From Parcubacteria group bacterium Greene0416_36 (GTDB lineage Bacteria > Patescibacteriota > Patescibacteriia > VMEV01), in NCBI GenBank assembly GCA_007375725.1, contig VMEV01000005.1, positions 1 through 57,725 on the forward strand: a stretch of DNA of 57,725 nucleotides, read 5' to 3'. Each line of letters begins with the position of its first letter. Positions within the stretch are counted from its first letter, which is position 1. A model generated the notes under the pieces. The model was not told the DNA's origin. It ran no database searches and was given only the letters and a program-made list of their open reading frames with translations. Below are positions 3,338 through 57,725 of this stretch, one piece after another. Position numbers and translations under genes: made by a program.

Positions 3338-3406
3338 ATAATTTATGAGTATATTTTATGGTGCGACTATACCATATATATGTAGTTTTTGCACGGATTT
3401 ATGATC

Positions 3407-3446
3407 AAAAAGGCAGAGATGTAGCATGCTACATCTCTGCCTTTTT
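3407..3446 (-). terminator. rho-independent terminator downstream of rpmG (bidirectional shape)
   Basis: A 14-bp perfect stem GGCAGAGATGTAGC / GCTACATCTCTGCC is flanked by A- and T-runs. Confidence 0.8.
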
Positions 3447-3465
3447 GATTATTGCTGAGAAGACG

Positions 3466-4156: not shown

Positions 4157-4408
4157 ATACAACATTCAGCAGCAAAATCAATGCATTGTGTTTTGTAAAA
4201 GTCATCTGATATAATGCTGGGCAAAGAACTGGCTTGGGAGGGGGTTCTTTTTTATCCTGCGAAGCTCGCCTTAGAGCGAAGCAGGATGAAAGCAAGGGGA
4301 GTGCCTTTATTACTTAGAGGGCTCCTTTTATTTTTGGCTGAAATGACGTACTCTGGGGACAACTTTCAAGAGTTTTGATAATCTATCAGATTAGCTGGTG
4401 GTGGGATG

Positions 4409-4479
4409 TTGTCATCCTGAGCCTGTCGAAGGATCTCTCGGCAAGGCATGAGATGGTTCGACAGGCTCACCATGACAGC
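4409..4479. repeat. TGTCAT...ATGACA compound palindrome, CCTGAGCCTGTCGAAGG type (copy 1)
   Basis: GTCATCCTGAGCCTGTCGAAGG ... GGTTCGACAGGCTCACCATGAC. It ends 16 nt before the metG ATG. Confidence 0.8.
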
Positions 4480-4494
4480 ACTACTTCCTAACCT

Positions 4495-7254: not shown

Positions 7255-7360
7255 TCATTGCGAGGACCGCGTCTTAGCGGGACGTGGCAATCTCATGGCA
7301 GAAACCTTTTCGACACGAGATTGCTTCGCCCCTGCTAAAGCGCAGGTTCTCGCAATGACA
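7255..7360. repeat. TGTCAT...ATGACA compound palindrome, CATTGCGAG type (copy 1)
   Basis: Two inverted ~40-nt units, CATTGCGAGGACCGCGTCTTAGCGGGACGTGGCAATCTC and its partner. It ends 14 nt before the SOD ATG. Confidence 0.8.
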
Positions 7361-8644: not shown

Positions 8645-9727
8645 ATGCCACGCATTCTCTTTGTCTCTAGGCCCGACTGTTTTTCGTTTCCGGCTGGGGA
8701 TACGGTCCAGATGAAGCATACGGCAAAATATTTGGAGCCTTTAGGATGGAAGGTGGATTTTTGGAATGGGAATATTGCGATGCTTAAAAATTATGAGATA
8801 ATACATGTTTTCAACTCTCGTCCTATCCATTTTTTTGTTTATTTGACCGAGCTTTTGGCGCGACTGCGGAAAAAACTGGTGATTTCTCCGATTATTATTG
8901 ATCTTGATGAATACAATCGGCGGGGGCGATACGGACTGGATTGTTTTCTCTTTCGTTTGCCTTTCTGGAATCATTGGGGCGAATGGGCGAAGTCTGCGTA
9001 TTTGTCCGCGCGCGGAGGGTATTCTTTGCCGGGTTTTGGTCGAGGGGATTACCGTTCGGGGGTGCGGACTCTTTTGGATGGTGCGGATGCGATCGTGTGT
9101 TTATCGGAGCTGGAGCGAGAATGGATTGCAAAAAACGTGCGGGATTATGCAAATGCGGCGATTATTCCTAATGGCGTGGAGCCTTTTTTTTATTCGGAAA
9201 ATAAAATCGCTCGGGATTGCTTTTTGTGTGTGGGAAAAATCGAACCGCTCAAAAATCAGCTCCGATTGCTCGAGGCTTATCGTCTCTTGGAAACCGATAT
9301 TCCGCTTTATTTCATTGGATCATCATCGCCCAAACACCCTGCCTTTGTCCGCGAATTTTTTCGCCAATTAAATCGAACCTCGGGTGCCATTTACATTCCC
9401 TCGATGCCTCATGCTGAATTAGCCTCTTTTTATCATCGCGCGAAAGTCCACATTCAGCCCAGCTGGTTTGAAAACGCGCCTTTGGTTCATATGGAAGCCT
9501 TGTCAGCCGGGGCCGCATCCGTGCTCACTGATCGGGGATTTGGAAAGAGTTTATTTCCCGAGTATACGGTTCTTTGTTCTCCTCGTTCGCCGGTCTCTAT
9601 TGCCGAAGCCATTGTTTCGGCTGAGACAAAAGAGATCCCCCATGGATTTTCCAAGAAAATGGTAGACGAGTATTCATGGGGTGCAACGGCGCGTAAATTG
9701 GCTTCTGTGTATGAGTCACTCAGTTAA
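8645..9727 (+). CDS. glycosyltransferase, GT4/GT1-like
   Basis: The C-terminal domain has the ENAPLVHMEALSAGA E-x7-E type motif. Confidence 0.7.
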   Translation: MPRILFVSRPDCFSFPAGDTVQMKHTAKYLEPLGWKVDFWNGNIAMLKNYEIIHVFNSRPIHFFVYLTELLARLRKKLVISPIIIDLDEYNRRGRYGLDCFLFRLPFWNHWGEWAKSAYLSARGGYSLPGFGRGDYRSGVRTLLDGADAIVCLSELEREWIAKNVRDYANAAIIPNGVEPFFYSENKIARDCFLCVGKIEPLKNQLRLLEAYRLLETDIPLYFIGSSSPKHPAFVREFFRQLNRTSGAIYIPSMPHAELASFYHRAKVHIQPSWFENAPLVHMEALSAGAASVLTDRGFGKSLFPEYTVLCSPRSPVSIAEAIVSAETKEIPHGFSKKMVDEYSWGATARKLASVYESLS

Positions 9728-10505
9728 ATTATCGATTATTATTTGCGCCTTGGATTCGAGAGATCATCTGGTTCGCTGTTTTGAATCTCTGTCCCTCCAA
9801 TACCTTCCGCGGTCGTGGGAACTGATTCTCGTGGAGAATGGCTCGTCCGACGGGACGGCGGGCTGGGTGGCCGCGGAGTATCCGCAGTTCCGTGTGATTG
9901 CTAATACTGCGAATAAAGGGGTCTCGATTGCCCGCAATCAGGCATTGGCCGAGGCGAGGGGAGAGTTTGTTTTATTCCTGGACGCGGATACTTATTTTAC
10001 GGAATCCCACACCATCAAGCATTTGATCTCGGTCTTGGATTCTGATCCCACCATTGCTCTCTTGGCCCCGAAACTTTTGTATCCCGATGGCCGGTATCAG
10101 TGTAATGTCCGCCGATTTCCAACCTTGTCGACCATGGCGGTGCGGGCCTTGGGCTTGGATTTGTGGGCGAAGAAAAGGCGTTTTTTTAGGGATTTTTTGT
10201 ATGAAGATATTATGATTGAAAATAAGGAGCTTCTGGATGTCGATTGGGCCTTGGCCGCTTGCCAATTGATTCGTTCCTCAGTTTTCAATCAAATCGGGCT
10301 TCTCGATCCGAAATATTTTTATGGTTATGAAGATATTGATTTTTGTTATCGATTGAAGCGTGGGGGAGCGCGAGTGGTTTTTGACCCCCGCGTGTCTTTG
10401 GTGCATATTTATCAGCGGCGAAGTACCCAATCATGTTTTTTTGCCTACCATCATGGTCGCAGTATTTTGCGATTTTTGGTTAAAAGATATCTATGCCTTA
10501 TTTGA
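9711..10505 (+). CDS. glycosyltransferase family 2
   Basis: LSIIICALD...NGSSDGT...LFLDAD motifs. The ATG at 9711 overlaps the upstream gene end. Confidence 0.75.
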   Translation: MSHSVKLSIIICALDSRDHLVRCFESLSLQYLPRSWELILVENGSSDGTAGWVAAEYPQFRVIANTANKGVSIARNQALAEARGEFVLFLDADTYFTESHTIKHLISVLDSDPTIALLAPKLLYPDGRYQCNVRRFPTLSTMAVRALGLDLWAKKRRFFRDFLYEDIMIENKELLDVDWALAACQLIRSSVFNQIGLLDPKYFYGYEDIDFCYRLKRGGARVVFDPRVSLVHIYQRRSTQSCFFAYHHGRSILRFLVKRYLCLI

Positions 10506-12361
10506 TCGCCTCTATTTTTTTTATTTTATTGCTCGTGCCATCGGAATGGGGGCATTTTATTTTGGGGGCGAGCGCGGCTTTGGTTTATTTATTTCTATTC
10601 TCGAAAGGGAAGATTCAAATGATCCGGAGTGATTGGATTTTATGGGTACTCTGGGGATATTTTTTGTCCGGAGTTTTTTTTCTTGTCCCATCTTTCGAAC
10701 GGGGAATAGCGGCCCTAGTGGATTTTACGTCCTGCCTGTTTTTGTTTTTTTCGGTTCGGAGCATGGATTTGTCTCTTGAAAAGTGGGCAAAGCCTCTGTT
10801 CGTCGTGTCGGGGATTAGTGCGCTCTGGGGACTCGTGGGACTTGGGCTCAGCGATCACTGGGGCTACCTCCGGACCTTTTCTTTCTGGGGCTCCCATGCC
10901 CACTGGGCGTCTTTTTTGATTTTTATTATTCCGATCGCGATGTTTTGGGTGATGAGGGGAGGGCGTCGGTGGGGGATTTTATTTCTGGCGATTTTATTCG
11001 CCAATTATTATTTCACCTTTTCCAGAAGTTCTTTCTTGGCTTTGGGTTTATGTATGGGGGTTTTGCTACTGATGAGAAAGGGCGATAAGCAACAAATCCC
11101 CCTTAATCCCCCCTTGACAGGGGGGAGATTGCTCCCTCCCCTGTCAAGGGGAGGGTTGGGGAGGGGTTGGTTGTTGGCTGTTTTTCTAATCCTCTCCCTC
11201 AGCCTTTACAAAATACACGATGCCCAAAAATCAGGTGTGCGCTTGTCTTTTTTATCACTCCAGCCCATTGTTGTCTCCATAGATAAATCAATTCCTGAAC
11301 TTGCTTCTGGGATCGACTTTTTTTTCGAACCAATACCTCCTCGAAATGCTGTGTCTTTTCGTCTTTCATACTGGAAACACGCGAGCGAAATTTTTCGGGA
11401 TCATTGGTTTTGGGGCATCGGAATCGGGGCCTTCGCAGATCAGTATCGCCTGTATTATCAGGATTTGCGCGATTTTTCGGGCGACCCGCATTCGTGGCCG
11501 CTGTCCTTGGCTTTGGCGGGCGGGGTGGCGGGGGGCGTGATTTTATTCATCTGGATTATTTCGGTGGTTCGGACAAGATTTTGGGAGGGGTGGGGCGACT
11601 CTCAGAAAATATTGGCTCTGTCTTTGGGTTTATTACTCGTTTCCAATCTCTGGGACCGAGGATTGATTTTTCTGCCGCATTTATTGATGATTTTCGTGTC
11701 TTTGGGGATGCTTTTGGGGGATGCGGGTCGTCCTGGTAGGGACACGTTCGGGCGTAGGGGCACGTTGCAACGTGCCCCTACGGGGCCGGTGGTAGGGATA
11801 TCCATAATTTTATTATTCGTTTCGTCTAGCTTTTTCCTCTCCTCTCTCTTTTCCAATCCCCGTCTTGCTTATTATTTCTATCGCCCTCGATCGGAATATG
11901 CTTATGCGGAGGCCCAGAAGCATGTGGATGGGGAAGTCCGTGCGGATTATTTTGTCTGGATGTCCCGCGCTTTATTTTGGGATGCCCCCAACTATATTTA
12001 TCGGACTCAATTAGCCGTCAATTTGTGGAATACCGGCCGTCACTCCGAGGCTCTCTCCGAAATCGAGCGCACGATTGCTTCCTCCCCCCGTGGCATTCCC
12101 AATTTGTACTTGTATTATTTTCAATTATTGAAGAATCGCGGGGAGTATGAAAAAATAGTGCGAGTCGGAGAAACTGTGATTCTGGATTATCCCAGAGATA
12201 TTCTGGTCTCCGAGGATTATTTTCTCTTCGACGGCGGCATTGAAAAACGGAAATCCGTGGCCGATATTTACGGGTGGATGGCCCGAGCGGCAGAGACTCT
12301 GGGAGACTTCGGAAAAGCGCAATTTTTCGAGGAGAGAAGCCGATTTATTTTGGGATTATGA
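10493..12361 (+). CDS. O-antigen ligase (Wzy_C)-like membrane protein with TPR-like C-terminus, carrying two in-frame repeat insertions
   Basis: Multi-TM protein with a FSRSSFLALGL-type motif. It contains NPE copy b and a GTAG palindrome in frame. Confidence 0.6.
   Translation: MPYLIASIFFILLLVPSEWGHFILGASAALVYLFLFSKGKIQMIRSDWILWVLWGYFLSGVFFLVPSFERGIAALVDFTSCLFLFFSVRSMDLSLEKWAKPLFVVSGISALWGLVGLGLSDHWGYLRTFSFWGSHAHWASFLIFIIPIAMFWVMRGGRRWGILFLAILFANYYFTFSRSSFLALGLCMGVLLLMRKGDKQQIPLNPPLTGGRLLPPLSRGGLGRGWLLAVFLILSLSLYKIHDAQKSGVRLSFLSLQPIVVSIDKSIPELASGIDFFFEPIPPRNAVSFRLSYWKHASEIFRDHWFWGIGIGAFADQYRLYYQDLRDFSGDPHSWPLSLALAGGVAGGVILFIWIISVVRTRFWEGWGDSQKILALSLGLLLVSNLWDRGLIFLPHLLMIFVSLGMLLGDAGRPGRDTFGRRGTLQRAPTGPVVGISIILLFVSSSFFLSSLFSNPRLAYYFYRPRSEYAYAEAQKHVDGEVRADYFVWMSRALFWDAPNYIYRTQLAVNLWNTGRHSEALSEIERTIASSPRGIPNLYLYYFQLLKNRGEYEKIVRVGETVILDYPRDILVSEDYFLFDGGIEKRKSVADIYGWMARAAETLGDFGKAQFFEERSRFILGL
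11089..11176. repeat. NPE copy b, R orientation, inside a CDS
   Basis: GCAACAAATCCCCCTTAATCCCCCCTTGACAGGGGGG...CCCTCCCCTGTCAAGGGGAGGG...GTTGGTTGTTG. It is read as QQIPLNPPLTGGRLLPPLSRGGLGRGWLL. Confidence 0.85.
11736..11781. repeat. GTAG-headed palindrome (REP-like) plus partial copy, inside a CDS
   Basis: GTAGGGACACGTTCGGGC is followed by the perfect 28-nt palindrome GTAGGGGCACGTTGCAACGTGCCCCTAC (11754-11781). Confidence 0.85.
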
Positions 12362-18673: not shown

Positions 18674-18679
18674 ACAAAT

Positions 18680-19975
<1,296 letters not shown>

Positions 19976-21764: not shown

Positions 21765-21798
21765 TGTCATCGCCTTCGAAGGGACCACTGGGTCAACT

Positions 21799-21905
21799 GT
21801 CATTGCGAAGCTCCCCGTTTTAGGGGAGATGAAGCAATCTCGTGTCGCAGGGTGTTATCATGAGATTGCCACGCCCCCGCTAAGACGCGGGTTCTCGCAA
21901 TGACA
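21799..21905. repeat. TGTCAT...ATGACA compound palindrome, CATTGCGAG type (copy 2)
   Basis: GTCATTGCGAAGCTCCCCGTTTTAGGGGAG...GAGATTGCCACGCCCCCGCTAAGACGCGGGTTCTCGCAATGACA. It ends 14 nt before the next start codon. Confidence 0.8.
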
Positions 21906-21919
21906 GTCTGTTTGGAGTA

Positions 21920-23979: not shown

Positions 23980-24041
23980 AATGTAGGGGCCTGAAATGTA
24001 GGGGCACAGCGCGCTGTGCCCCTACATTTTGCCCTTACATT
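23980..24041. repeat. nested GTAG palindromes (REP-like doublet)
   Basis: The perfect palindrome GTAGGGGCACAGCGCGCTGTGCCCCTAC (23998-24025) lies inside outer arms AATGTAGGGGC / GCCCTTACATT, between convergent rplU and recR. Confidence 0.9.
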
Positions 24042-24958: not shown

Positions 24959-24965
24959 ATTTTTT

Positions 24966-25059
24966 TAGTGAATAGTGAGTAGTTGGTAGTGGGTAGAAGC
25001 TAGTTAGTTGAGAGTATTCCTACTCACCACTCACTACAAACTACTCACTAACCCACTAC
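24966..25059. repeat. heptamer-arm hairpin (TAGTGAG/TAGTGGG-type arms)
   Basis: Arms TAGTGAATAGTGAGTAGTTGGTAGTGGGTAG and CCTACTCACCACTCACTACAAACTACTCACTAACCCACTAC. The right arm overlaps the dnaB 3' end. Confidence 0.8.
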
Positions 25060-33258: not shown

Positions 33259-33265
33259 AAATATA

Positions 33266-33351
33266 ATTAAAAATTCAAAATGCAAAATTCAAAAATAAAA
33301 GCCAAAATATTGGGTATTTCATTTTTAATTTTTAATTTTGCATTTTGAATT
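33266..33351. repeat. heptamer-arm hairpin (AAAATTC-type arms)
   Basis: Arms AATTAAAAATTCAAAATGCAAAATTCAAAAAT and ATTTTTAATTTTTAATTTTGCATTTTGAATT. Confidence 0.75.
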
Positions 33352-44311: not shown

Positions 44312-44384
44312 GCCGGAGTAGCTCAGTTGGTAGAGCAGTGCTTTCGTAAAGCAAAGGTCGTCAGTTCAATTCTGACCTCCGGCT
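44312..44384 (+). tRNA. trnT: tRNA-Thr (CGT)
   Basis: Acceptor GCCGGAG/CTCCGGC, anticodon loop TTCGTAA, T-arm GTCAG-TTCAATT-CTGAC. Confidence 0.85.
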
Positions 44385-44435
44385 CCCAAAAAAACGTAGG
44401 GACGTTGCATTGCAACGTCCCTACGTTTTTTTGGG
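44385..44435. terminator. bidirectional terminator formed by a GTAG palindrome
   Basis: CCCAAAAAAA-CGTAGGGACGTTGCATTGCAACGTCCCTACG-TTTTTTTGGG lies between convergent tRNA genes. Confidence 0.75.
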
Positions 44436-44438
44436 AGG

Positions 44439-45252: not shown

Positions 45253-45341
45253 AAAATTACGAAAGACGAATTACGAATTACGAATGAACAACAAAACAGC
45301 CGGCTGTTGCATTCGTAATTCGTAATTTGTAATTCGTCTTT
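45253..45341. repeat. heptamer-arm hairpin (GAATTAC-type arms), complete, with AACAGCCGGCTGTT centre
   Basis: It fills the whole ftsE-ftsX intergenic space. Confidence 0.85.
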
Positions 45342-54349: not shown

Positions 54350-56092
54350 ATGAAGAAAATAGCGCAGTGGGAGATCAAGACGCCCGTGGAGGTCGCCAAT
54401 CGGGATCAGTTTCCGGAGGTGCATCCGATCGTTTTGCAGTTGCTGTGGGATCGGGGATTGCGGACCGAGGCGCAAATCGAAGAGTTTTTGACTCCGGATT
54501 ATTTGGAAGACGTCCATGATCCTTTTTTATTTTCGAGAATGGTTGAAGCGGTAGATTTACTCTCGGGAAAAATTAAAGCGAAAGAATTAGTCGCGATTCA
54601 CGGGGACTATGATGCGGATGGCGTCACGGCCAGCGTGATTTTGGCTTCCACGATTCGACTTCTCGGCGGAGAGGCTCTGGTTTATTTGCCTCATCGGGAA
54701 ACCGAAGGCTATGGTCTGTCTAAAAAGGCTATTGATTATCTGGCTCGAAAAGGCGCCTTCTTACTCATCACGGCTGACTGCGGGATCAGCAATCGGGAAG
54801 AAGTCGAGTATGCTAAATCATCGGGGTTTACCGTGATTGTCACCGATCATCATGAGGTCCCAGCCGTACCTCCGGAGTGCATTTTGATTCATCCCCGCGC
54901 TCCTGGAGAAGAATATCCTTTTAAATATCTGACAGGCGGAGGAGTGGCATTCAAATTCATGCAGGCCATTCTTCGTACGAAGAGCGAGGAATTTGGAGTC
55001 AAAAAAGAAGAAGCTTTTGCTTTTGAAAAATGGCTTCTGGATTTGGTGGCCATCTCGACGGTCGCGGACATGATGCCCCTCCTCGGTGAGAATCGGACCT
55101 TGGTCAAATATGGCCTGGTGGTACTGGCCAAATCCCGTCGCGTGGGCATGAAGAGTCTGCTCGAACGTGCGGGACTGCTTGGGGGAGAGAAGCCCGCTAA
55201 ACTGGATGCCGATACCATTGGCTTTCAAATTGCGCCTCGCATCAATGCCGCCGGGCGCATGGATCATGCCAATATCGCGTTCGAGCTGCTCATGGAAGAG
55301 TCGCCGGTGCGGGCGGGTGAACTCGCCGAAGCTATCAACAAGAATAACGCCGATCGTAAAGACGTGGTGACCCGCATGATGGAGTCTGCGTATCGTCAGC
55401 TGGGAGAGGTTCCGCTGGACGCGCGCCGAGTGCTTTCGGTTTATGACAGCTCGTGGTCCTTGGGAGTCGCGGGGCTTGTGGCCGGGAAACTTTGCCAGGA
55501 ATTTTACCTGCCCTCGGTCGTGGCCGCGGATCTGGACGGGAAAATCGCGGGTTCGGTGCGTTCGATTCCTGGATTCAATTTTGTCGATATGCTTTGGGAG
55601 ATGAAGGGTCTGTTTGAGAAATTTGGAGGTCATGCCGCGGCTTGCGGATTCACGCTGAAGAACCGAGCGGATTGGCCGATATTCCAGAAAAAAGCGAGTG
55701 AATTTTTCTTTCTCAAATCGCGCGACTCGGATGTGATCCCGAAGCTCATGATCGACCAGGAAATTCCGCTCCGAGAAATCAATTGGGATCTCATGGGTCA
55801 GCTCGAGCAGTGTGAGCCTTTTGGAAAAGATAATCCTCGTCCGGTTTTTATCTCGCGAGGGGTGACGGTCAAATCGCTCGACCCTATTGGTAATCTAGGG
55901 AAACATTTGCGTCTCTCCGTATTTGACGGCCAAAAAACAACCCGTAAATGCATCGGGTTCTGTTTTGGCCACTGGTGCCAAACCCTCAAATCCGGGGATA
56001 AAATTGATATGGTCTATGAGGTGGGCGTCAATGAATGGAATGGGAATAGGGAATTGCAATTGAGGATTGTGGATCTTAAATTAGGCAGTTAG
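54350..56092 (+). CDS. recJ: single-stranded-DNA-specific exonuclease RecJ
   Basis: DHH-family motifs: HGDYDADGV, ITADCG, VTDHH. Confidence 0.9.
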   Translation: MKKIAQWEIKTPVEVANRDQFPEVHPIVLQLLWDRGLRTEAQIEEFLTPDYLEDVHDPFLFSRMVEAVDLLSGKIKAKELVAIHGDYDADGVTASVILASTIRLLGGEALVYLPHRETEGYGLSKKAIDYLARKGAFLLITADCGISNREEVEYAKSSGFTVIVTDHHEVPAVPPECILIHPRAPGEEYPFKYLTGGGVAFKFMQAILRTKSEEFGVKKEEAFAFEKWLLDLVAISTVADMMPLLGENRTLVKYGLVVLAKSRRVGMKSLLERAGLLGGEKPAKLDADTIGFQIAPRINAAGRMDHANIAFELLMEESPVRAGELAEAINKNNADRKDVVTRMMESAYRQLGEVPLDARRVLSVYDSSWSLGVAGLVAGKLCQEFYLPSVVAADLDGKIAGSVRSIPGFNFVDMLWEMKGLFEKFGGHAAACGFTLKNRADWPIFQKKASEFFFLKSRDSDVIPKLMIDQEIPLREINWDLMGQLEQCEPFGKDNPRPVFISRGVTVKSLDPIGNLGKHLRLSVFDGQKTTRKCIGFCFGHWCQTLKSGDKIDMVYEVGVNEWNGNRELQLRIVDLKLGS

Positions 56093-56166
56093 GCTTTAGG
56101 CATTAGCTTTTTAGGGAACAGCCAAAATACTGTTTTATTTCTAATAAGCTAAAACCTAATGCCTAA
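56081..56166. repeat. heptamer-arm hairpin (TTAGGCA/TTAGCTT-type arms)
   Basis: The left arm overlaps the recJ stop. GAACAGCC lies in the loop. The right arm is CTAATAAGCTAAAACCTAATGCCTAA. Confidence 0.75.
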
Positions 56167-56181
56167 TTCCTTGTTGCTTAT

Positions 56182-56592: not shown

Positions 56593-56680
56593 CAACCAAT
56601 CCCTCCCCAGCCCTCCCTTTGACAAGGGAGGGGGTAGCAGCCTCCCCCTTGTCAAAGGGGGACCGAGGGGGATTTGTTGT
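56592..56680. repeat. NPE copy o, F orientation
   Basis: It starts at the last base of the rnhA stop codon and is followed by a heptamer arm TCATTCGTCATTCTTCATT. Confidence 0.9.
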
Positions 56681-56703
56681 TTCATTCGTCATTCTTCATT
56701 TTT

Positions 56704-57384
56704 ATGCACCCTTCCCTCGTGATTTCCCTCGGCGGATCCATAGTGGTTCCGGACAAAGTCGATGTTAAATTCATTGAACATTTTCGAGATTTAATTTTAG
56801 GCATTAAAAAGAATTACAATAAGATTTTTATTATTGTCGGAGGGGGAGCAACTGCTCGCGTGTATCAAAACGCGCTTCGCGAATTGGGCACGGAAAAGAA
56901 CTCGGATTTGGATTGGATGGGGATCTCGGTTTCGCGACTCAATGGCCAGTTATTACGGACCGTTTTTTCTAAATTTGCTTATCCAGAACTCGTGACTGAT
57001 CCTTCAAAAAAAATTTCTTTTGGGGAAAAGATGATGATTGGCGCGGGCTGGAAACCAGGCTGGAGCACGGATTATGTCTCGGTCCAATTCGCCAAGACCT
57101 ACGGCGTCCGAGAAATGCTCAATCTGTCCAATGTGGAATGTGTCTACGACAAAGATCCCAAAACTCATCCTGACGCCAAACCTATCTCGTCGCTATCTTG
57201 GCGGAAAATGAAGTCTCTCATGCCCTCGAAATGGACCCCCGGCATGAATGCCCCTTTCGATCCTCAAGCCGTGAAATTGGCCTCCGGATTGGGTTTAAAA
57301 GTCGTATTCCTGAAAGGCACGGATCTGGGAAACCTCGAGCATTATTTGGAAGGGAAAAAGTGGAAGGGGAGTGTGGTGGAGTAA
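56704..57384 (+). CDS. pyrH: UMP kinase, archaeal-type
   Basis: ISLGGSIVVP, FIIVGGGATAR and GWKPGWSTD motifs, about 226 aa. It resembles the short archaeal PyrH layout. Confidence 0.75.
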   Translation: MHPSLVISLGGSIVVPDKVDVKFIEHFRDLILGIKKNYNKIFIIVGGGATARVYQNALRELGTEKNSDLDWMGISVSRLNGQLLRTVFSKFAYPELVTDPSKKISFGEKMMIGAGWKPGWSTDYVSVQFAKTYGVREMLNLSNVECVYDKDPKTHPDAKPISSLSWRKMKSLMPSKWTPGMNAPFDPQAVKLASGLGLKVVFLKGTDLGNLEHYLEGKKWKGSVVE

Positions 57385-57395
57385 TTTGGTTTTGT

Positions 57396-57638
57396 ATGAA
57401 TAATCTTGTTGATGAGAATGGTAAATTTCTAGAGAAATATAGGATTGAATCGTCGAGATGTAAACCGTGGGATTATTCGTCACAGGGTTATTATTTTGTT
57501 ACGATTTGTACTCGAGATCGAGAGCCTTTTTTTGGAAAAATTGCAGAGGGAAAAATGGAATTATCTGATGTCGGGGTGATTGCTGAAACTTTTTTAAAAG
57601 ATATTGAACATCATTTTTCACATATAAAGGTACTGTAA
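57396..57638 (+). CDS. IS200/IS605-like (RAYT-type) Y1 transposase, N-terminal fragment only
   Basis: KYRIESSRCKPWDYSSQGYYFVTICTRDREPFFGKIAEGKMELSDVGVIAE matches the N-terminal pattern of this family. The ORF stops before the expected HUH motif. Confidence 0.55.
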   Translation: MNNLVDENGKFLEKYRIESSRCKPWDYSSQGYYFVTICTRDREPFFGKIAEGKMELSDVGVIAETFLKDIEHHFSHIKVL

Positions 57639-57725
57639 ACTAAAAGTGTGTAAATAAAAAAGAAGGGATGAGATAATGGAAATGTTTAGTAACCATTAAA
57701 ATCATCCTTCCTATGAAAAAGAATA

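Follow-up and report, generated by a model that had tools for sequence, protein, structure and literature searches.

At the end of the window, by which we mean the whole 57,725-nt stretch of DNA analysed here, an 80-aa open reading frame (MNNLVDENGKFLEKYRIESSRCKPWDYSSQGYYFVTICTRDREPFFGKIAEGKMELSDVGVIAETFLKDIEHHFSHIKVL) runs from an ATG at 57396 to a TAA stop at 57636–57638. The stop codon of its upstream neighbour, a gene of the amino-acid-kinase family (56674–57384), lies 11 nt 5' of the ORF start. Two pieces of DNA of different origin meet within the ORF. Positions 57396–57628 (plus strand) are the native part of a RAYT-like gene (TnpA-REP subclass 2.4), as delimited by phmmer matches and by an alignment with full-length homologues (alignment A3), and positions 57629–57725 (plus strand) are the left end of a 1302-bp insertion sequence (IS) of the IS256 family that runs off the window. 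The latter segment holds a terminal inverted repeat, a leader hairpin and the start of a transposase gene. Elsewhere in the window there are four double-foot GTAG palindromes of the kind associated with RAYT genes.

Family membership of the truncated ORF

An exhaustive phmmer search with the 80-aa ORF against 1.84 billion representative proteins returned 8519 matches at E ≤ 1e-3 and 946 at E ≤ 1e-10, with a best E of 2.7e-19. The exhaustive search was needed since a word-indexed protein search with the fragment returned only the query itself. The matched proteins are 50–60% identical to the ORF, which always corresponds to the first ~75 residues of longer proteins (150–270 aa). Among the best 150 of the 8519 homologues, 117 carry an HUH-like motif (MPNH[VIM]H) directly past the point at which the ORF stops, and 39 have both the HUH motif and a C-terminal Y[ILVM]x(1-3)NP, mostly in the form YIxNNP. 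To compare the ORF with complete proteins, we aligned it with 19 full-length homologues (alignment A3) and built a profile from the result. The window ORF ends in ..HHFSHIKVL* where the homologues go on with ..NHISKIKLGEFIIMPDHMHGI, and MPNHxH follows 8 residues further. The fragment, which has no frameshift, retains every one of the eight residues that are invariant in A3, and the WQ and YIxNNP motifs, near-invariant among the full-length homologues, are both missing from it. The native part thus delimited comprises 77 codons plus 2 nt of the N-terminal region and ends 8 residues short of HUH, in agreement with the first-pass annotation, which had placed the stop at 57638 just before this motif. 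No HUH motif was found in any of the three forward frames downstream of the ORF, to 57725.

Curated models recognize the family through its complete members. The full-length homologues pass Pfam Y1_Tnp and score 50–66 bits against NCBIfam REP_Tyr_transpos, under the equivalog cut-off of 80 bits. With the 80-aa fragment alone, a Pfam profile search gave no match, and an NCBIfam search gave REP_Tyr_transpos only at a non-significant E of 0.14 (12 bits); the Y1_Tnp check proposed at first pass therefore succeeds for the homologues and fails for the fragment itself. The A3 profile has a single significant match in the PDB, E. coli TnpA-REP (4ER8, E = 5e-7), in an alignment that spans the HUH strand and the WQxRF...YIxxNP region; the N-terminal 70 residues of the family gave no alignment with 4ER8. 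Since the fragment lacks a curated-model match and the N-terminus lacks a 4ER8 alignment, the family assignment rests on the contiguous full-length homologues. Sequence comparison supports, by transitive homology, the RAYT-like identity of the ORF at 57396 that had been proposed from its N-terminal pattern: the pattern fits, and the full-length homologues have the Y1_Tnp domain, HUH and YIxNNP. TnpA-REP subclass 2.4 is marked by a low copy number per genome; within the 57.7-kb window, a tblastn search found one RAYT copy.

Among characterized Y1 systems, subclass 2.4 of TnpA-Y1 is defined by NH[IFV]H, WQ and YIxNNP (Quentin, Siguier, Chandler & Fichant 2018, PMC6006769, Table 1), has a median size of ~190 aa (PMC6006769) and equals RAYT group 4 of Bertels et al. 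2017 (PMC5581495). It is known for long double-foot GT[AG]G...C[TC]AC REPs, often in frame inside its own gene (PMC6006769). The full-length homologues of the fragment carry the same three motifs at ~190 aa, and the palindromes of the window are of the same 28-nt double-foot type. The window copy differs from the subclass in being reduced to the first 77 codons, with the catalytic half missing, and in having no REP on its 5' flank. It also comes from a Patescibacteria (CPR) host, while the taxa stressed in the publication are Cyanobacteria, Bacteroidetes, Chlorobia and 'various phyla' (PMC6006769). The E. coli enzyme (PDB 4ER8), which belongs to subclass 2.2 or RAYT group 2, aligns with the family in the HUH strand and the WQxRF...YIxxNP helix region, but shows no detectable similarity in the first 70 residues, the only part of the protein for which the window has coding sequence. 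E. coli REPs are also unlike those found here, having a single GTAG foot, bulged stems and a REPIN/BIME arrangement.

It is very improbable that the ORF derives from the transposase of an autonomous IS200/IS605-type insertion sequence and not from a domesticated RAYT. The two kinds of enzyme do share the Y1/HUH fold superfamily and single-stranded DNA hairpin substrates, and the Pfam domain itself bears the name 'Transposase IS200 like'. However, the homologues have YIxNNP and not the Y---Q of IS200/IS605 TnpA (subclass 1.1), and their REP_Tyr_transpos scores are three times their IS200 scores, which reach 18–23 bits against an NCBIfam cut-off of 55. The N-terminal YRIESxR..WDY extension of the window ORF family is absent from IS200/IS605 TnpA. 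Moreover, the gene is present as a single window copy, 11 nt behind a housekeeping gene, with neither tnpB nor upstream subterminal hairpins; the many identical copies and the frequent tnpB partner of subclass 1.1 are not seen here.

The interrupting element and the fate of the gene

The DNA past the ORF was identified through an exact 26-mer from just beyond the stop codon, which had one match in the genome collection, the 1302-nt contig L003 (VBWA01000100.1). The window is carried by contig k139_360328 (ENA ERZ27284378, 57,805 nt), which ends 40 nt past the window, and the last 137 nt of this contig (L001 10234–10370) are identical at 137 of 137 positions to the start of L003. Identity begins at 57629, so that the IS starts with the third base of codon 78 and the last 10 nt of the ORF (that base, codons 79–80 and the TAA) are IS-derived. 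Read on its minus strand, L003 begins with GGTACTGTAAACTAAAAGTGTGTAAA, ends with TTTACACAGGATTAGTTGACACTACC and is bounded by 26-nt imperfect terminal inverted repeats. When the left repeat (IRL, 57629–57654, plus strand) is compared with the reverse-complemented opposite terminus of L003, GGTAGTGTCAACTAATCCTGTGTAAA, 21 of 26 positions agree. L003 codes for one protein of 396 aa, which scores 207 bits against NCBIfam NF033543 'IS256 family transposase' (cut-off 150) and 165 bits against Pfam Transposase_mut (PF00872). The start of this gene (MKKN...) occupies 57713–57725 (plus strand) of the window.

The element resembles the IS256 family in its Mutator-type DDE transposase, its length of 1302 bp and its 26-nt imperfect terminal inverted repeats, the last two falling within the ranges of 1.2–1.5 kb and about 20–30 bp that mark the family. 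It is unlike the IS256-family elements annotated on plasmids, to whose transposases its own is at most 30% identical. The nearest relatives of the transposase are metagenome proteins (55–59% identity), and those that carry an organism label are from CPR MAGs at 44–54% (Candidatus Magasanikbacteria and Uhrbacteria, both 53–54%, and Paceibacterota). Judged by sequence, the interrupting element is a previously unnamed member of the IS256 family.

Other kinds of interrupting DNA were also considered. The terminal inverted repeats of L003 together with its Mutator/IS256 transposase ruled out the left end of an IS200/IS605 element, a group I or II intron and a homing-endonuclease gene.

The first-pass annotation had pointed to an AT-rich tail with a short inverted repeat after the ORF. 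Both are present, and both belong to the IS. The repeat forms a leader hairpin (57662–57710, plus strand) with arms at 57662–57671 (GAAGGGATGA) and 57702–57710 (TCATCCTTC). An inner stem, ATGG..CCAT, is also present, 2 nt lie between the 3' arm and the transposase start codon, and the same hairpin sequence is found in L003 and in L004, a second contig with the IS. The predicted RNA fold has an energy of −16.1 kcal/mol (z = −2.08). Within the window this inverted repeat occurs once. No second copy of the post-ORF tail was detected in the rest of the window, including its opposite end, and exact-match scans with the tail gave nothing in JGI metagenomes or viral contigs. With the 10 nt directly before the transposase ATG paired, the hairpin may damp the translation of read-through transcripts, which would enter the IS from the RAYT promoter. 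Damping of this kind is known for IS200 and IS10; a role of the present hairpin in occluding the translation-initiation region is speculative. The hairpin loop also contains, after the purine-rich arm GAAGGGATGA, a mini-ORF of 7 codons (ATG GAA ATG TTT AGT AAC CAT TAA, 57676–57699).

A protein identical to the L003 transposase (P0152) is encoded in L004, L005 and L006, and the IS is therefore a repeat. L004 (ERZ27284378 k139_613280) is a 119-kb contig of the same sample with a second IS copy at 9917–11218, downstream of rpoBC; L005, from a sister sample, is a contig whose end coincides with the right end of the IS, and L006 is a stand-alone 1302-nt Logan contig. The repetitive nature of the IS explains why contigs break at this point. 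The two RAYT-bearing assemblies that we examined break 137 nt (MEGAHIT, k=139) and 28 nt (Logan, k=31) into the IS, and we infer from this distance of about one k-mer that the de Bruijn graph had entered the repeat. A junction that involves a repeat and lies at a contig end could be an assembly chimera, but the same RAYT–IS junction is seen in contigs of two different samples, one assembled by MEGAHIT (k=139) and one by Logan (k=31), which makes a chimera scarcely credible. In addition, seven contigs from several samples encode the same 80-aa product with its IS-derived tail unchanged, and the insertion is thus not an artefact of one assembly. L003 itself was deposited in a MaxBin MAG labelled 'Rhodocyclaceae bacterium'. 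Rhodocyclaceae are expected to be high-GC. Since the IS has 38% GC, its relatives and contexts are CPR-like and the contigs studied here have 46% GC, L003 is most likely a mis-binned collapsed repeat.

We are confident that 57396–57628 is the 5' part of a TnpA-REP subclass 2.4 gene that was cut by the 1302-bp IS256-family element and is now a pseudogene. The IS would have inserted in the same orientation as the gene after the second base of codon 78, 8 codons 5' of HUH, and the ORF stops because its reading frame enters the IS terminal repeat and comes to an end there after 10 nt. The earlier suggestion of a gene interrupted by an insertion is thereby confirmed, with an IS256-family element from 57629 onward, whereas the suggestion that the gene simply continues beyond the window was mistaken, since the stop codon lies in the IS terminal repeat. 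Without either catalytic motif, HUH or the Tyr of YIxNNP, the 80-aa product could not cleave or join DNA, and on its sequence the remnant should be inactive.

Could the 80-aa ORF be a genuine short gene, whose product is an N-terminal domain that functions independently? It is intact, and its recurrence in identical form on the seven contigs would be in keeping with this. Nevertheless, its last two codons and its stop are IS terminal-repeat sequence, and its short relatives P0023, P0046 and P0064 break off within or just before HUH, as would be expected of truncation by a contig end or by disruption. We therefore regard a genuine short gene as most unlikely, and retain the reading of an IS-disrupted RAYT pseudogene.

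The whereabouts of the 3' half bear on how the disruption came about. A simple insertion with an 8-bp duplication would give the right terminal repeat (IRR), then CATATAAA, then ...(L/V)xEFxxMPNHxH. The first-pass annotation had proposed looking for the HUH and Tyr segments beyond 57725, where the next 40 nt are IS; tblastn did not find the RAYT 3' half in the window, nor in 21 kb of L004 and 11 kb of L005 sequence. It is possible, though doubtful, that recombination between IS copies deleted or relocated this half, in which case no HUH or Tyr segment would lie behind the IS. Besides the failure to find the 3' half in any sequence examined, the second IS copy in L004 speaks for such an event. 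Its flanks (..TCAATCGG on one side, ACTAGAGG.. on the other) do not match and show no target-site duplication, and it separates a piece coding for an N-terminal TM helix (MNKKQIGILIIITIPL) from a longer minus-strand ORF, the two being mutually out of frame. The missing duplication and the out-of-frame gene pieces suggest either that IS copies have taken part in a rearrangement or that the assembly joined flanks belonging to different copies. On the other hand, the sample sequence inspected amounts to only ~80 kb, and the retention of all eight invariant residues with no frameshift fits a recent, simple event. IS256-family elements, moreover, normally insert with target duplications of 8–9 bp.

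GTAG palindromes and their association with RAYT genes

Four double-foot palindromes of the form GTAG-N10/N10-CTAC, 28–29 nt long and perfect or near-perfect, are present in the window, and three of the four have the foot GTAGGGGCAC in common. The first, GTAGGGGCACGTTGCAACGTGCCCCTAC (11754–11781), lies in frame in a 622-aa Wzy_C/O-antigen-ligase-like ORF (10493–12361). The second, GTAGGGGCACAGTGCGCTGTGCCCCTAC (19331–19358), is in frame in tgt (18767–19975), where it codes for VGAQCAVPL in a surface loop. This insert is missing from 7 of 9 Tgt homologues at 58–63% identity. In the other two (P0214 and P0216) the same loop is occupied by repeat-like inserts that differ from it, so that the site looks like a hot spot at which insertions are tolerated. 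The third, GTAGGGGCACAGCGCGCTGTGCCCCTAC (23998–24025), is intergenic, downstream of recR, and is placed between the half-copies TGTAGGGGC (23982) and GCCCTTACA (24032), so that 23982–24040 looks as if a newer palindrome had been inserted into the centre of an older, decayed copy. The fourth, GTAGGGACGTTGCATTGCAACGTCCCTAC (44396–44424), is flanked by A7 and T7 between the convergent genes for tRNA-Thr(CGT) and tRNA-Gly(CCC), and shares its sequence type with the palindromes inside homologous RAYT genes (P0021 residues 97–106, by tblastn). A fifth GTAG hairpin, at 3404–3449, has the GTAG at its centre.

Perfect hairpins with stems of 10 nt or longer number 15 in the window, whereas 30 dinucleotide-preserving shuffles gave 0.73 on average. 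GTAG-bearing hairpins number 5, and the shuffles contained none. The first-pass description of the genome as 'saturated' with GTAG palindromes is thus right in that they are far above chance, but overstated for what are only four plus one. No palindrome is found on the 5' side of the RAYT fragment, where the upstream gene leaves only 11 nt, and the usual position of an embedded palindrome, after HUH, falls beyond the IS at this locus.

Two of these sites have further features of context. The palindrome in the Wzy_C-like ORF is 3' of the Pfam domain, in the context ..GRRGTLQRAPTG.., and the one between the tRNA genes forms the core of a perfect hairpin with 27-nt arms (A7-C-GTAGGGACGTTGCA..CTAC-G-T7) that fills the tRNA-Thr/tRNA-Gly gap (44383–44437). 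This hairpin looks like a bidirectional terminator built around a REP.

We then considered the palindromes at the level of the family, using 80 related loci fetched with the family profile and measuring palindrome density by position. The density of GTAG..CTAC palindromes is 0.56 per kb in the RAYT-like ORFs themselves (27 copies) and falls to 0.24 per kb at distances of up to 300 nt (10 copies) and to 0.027 per kb elsewhere in the 80 loci (7 copies in 257 kb), an enrichment of about 20-fold inside the RAYT genes and 9-fold beside them. The embedded copies account for peptides that recur in the linker after HUH, namely VETLQCNVST, VGTLHATSLQ, RDAINRVST and VETRLIASLQ. These data support a family-level link of RAYTs to GTAG palindromes, and the pattern matches the description of subclass 2.4 exactly (PMC6006769). 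As for the first-pass proposal of a candidate mobiliser, the copy in the window is broken and cannot be an active one now.

How an intact enzyme would act can be sketched by analogy with the biochemistry of E. coli TnpA-REP and IS200/IS605 (PMC3479197, PMC8266576). It would bind the 28-nt GTAG...CTAC double-foot REPs as folded single strands, the GTAG foot would act as both guide and cleavage site for cutting and rejoining, and catalysis would proceed through an HUH-bound metal and the Tyr of YIxNNP.

Host context and other repeats

The best matches of the Tgt protein of the window, at 56–59% identity, come from Patescibacteria/CPR MAGs (Pacebacteria, Parcubacteria, Moranbacteria and 'Patescibacteria group'). 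A brief literature search for RAYTs in Patescibacteria gave no description, only irrelevant word matches. The locus extends the association of REPs with RAYT subclass 2.4 to a CPR/Patescibacteria genome, and shows that tgt and a Wzy-like gene tolerate double-foot REPs in frame. In annotation terms, the ORF of 80 aa becomes a RAYT (TnpA-REP subclass 2.4) pseudogene fragment, and 57629 onward a new IS256-family element. The gene is of a known kind in a known association, present as an inactivated copy, and the locus adds a new member to both the RAYT and IS256 families. We tentatively raise the further idea, which we consider rather unlikely, that this was the sole RAYT of a small Patescibacteria genome, recently knocked out by the IS, and that its loss orphaned double-foot REPs, some of them in essential genes (tgt). 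If so, the genome would represent a natural 'after loss of the transposase' state of the REP–RAYT system; if it holds no second RAYT copy, its REPs would be a population that has lost its mobilising enzyme. Such a possible 'RAYT-loss' state is of mild interest.

Repeats of other kinds were also observed. A second palindrome family, unrelated to GTAG, is present as CCCTCCCTTTGACAAGGGAGGG and CCTCCCCCTTGTCAAAGGGGGA in tandem at 56600–56672, 720–800 nt upstream of the RAYT fragment, and elsewhere as CCCCTTGACAGGGGG. Other sites of this family are at 11110–11151 in the window and at 9100–9120 in the 119-kb contig L004. Long imperfect inverted repeats at 4407–4480, 7279–7332 and 21796–21907 are of the GTCATCCTGAGCCTGTCGAAGGATCTC type and the ..CGAGATTGC.. 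/ ACTGTCATTGCGAAGC.. type. Finally, intergenic AT-rich stretches at 18677–18763, 24962–25043, 33265–33351, 45255–45341 and 56082–56180 are made of the units AAGAATGAAGAATT, TAGTGAATAGTGAG, AATTCAAAATGCAAAATT, ACGAATTACGAATT and TAGGCAGTTAGGCTTTAGGC, each followed by its own reverse complement to give long hairpins.
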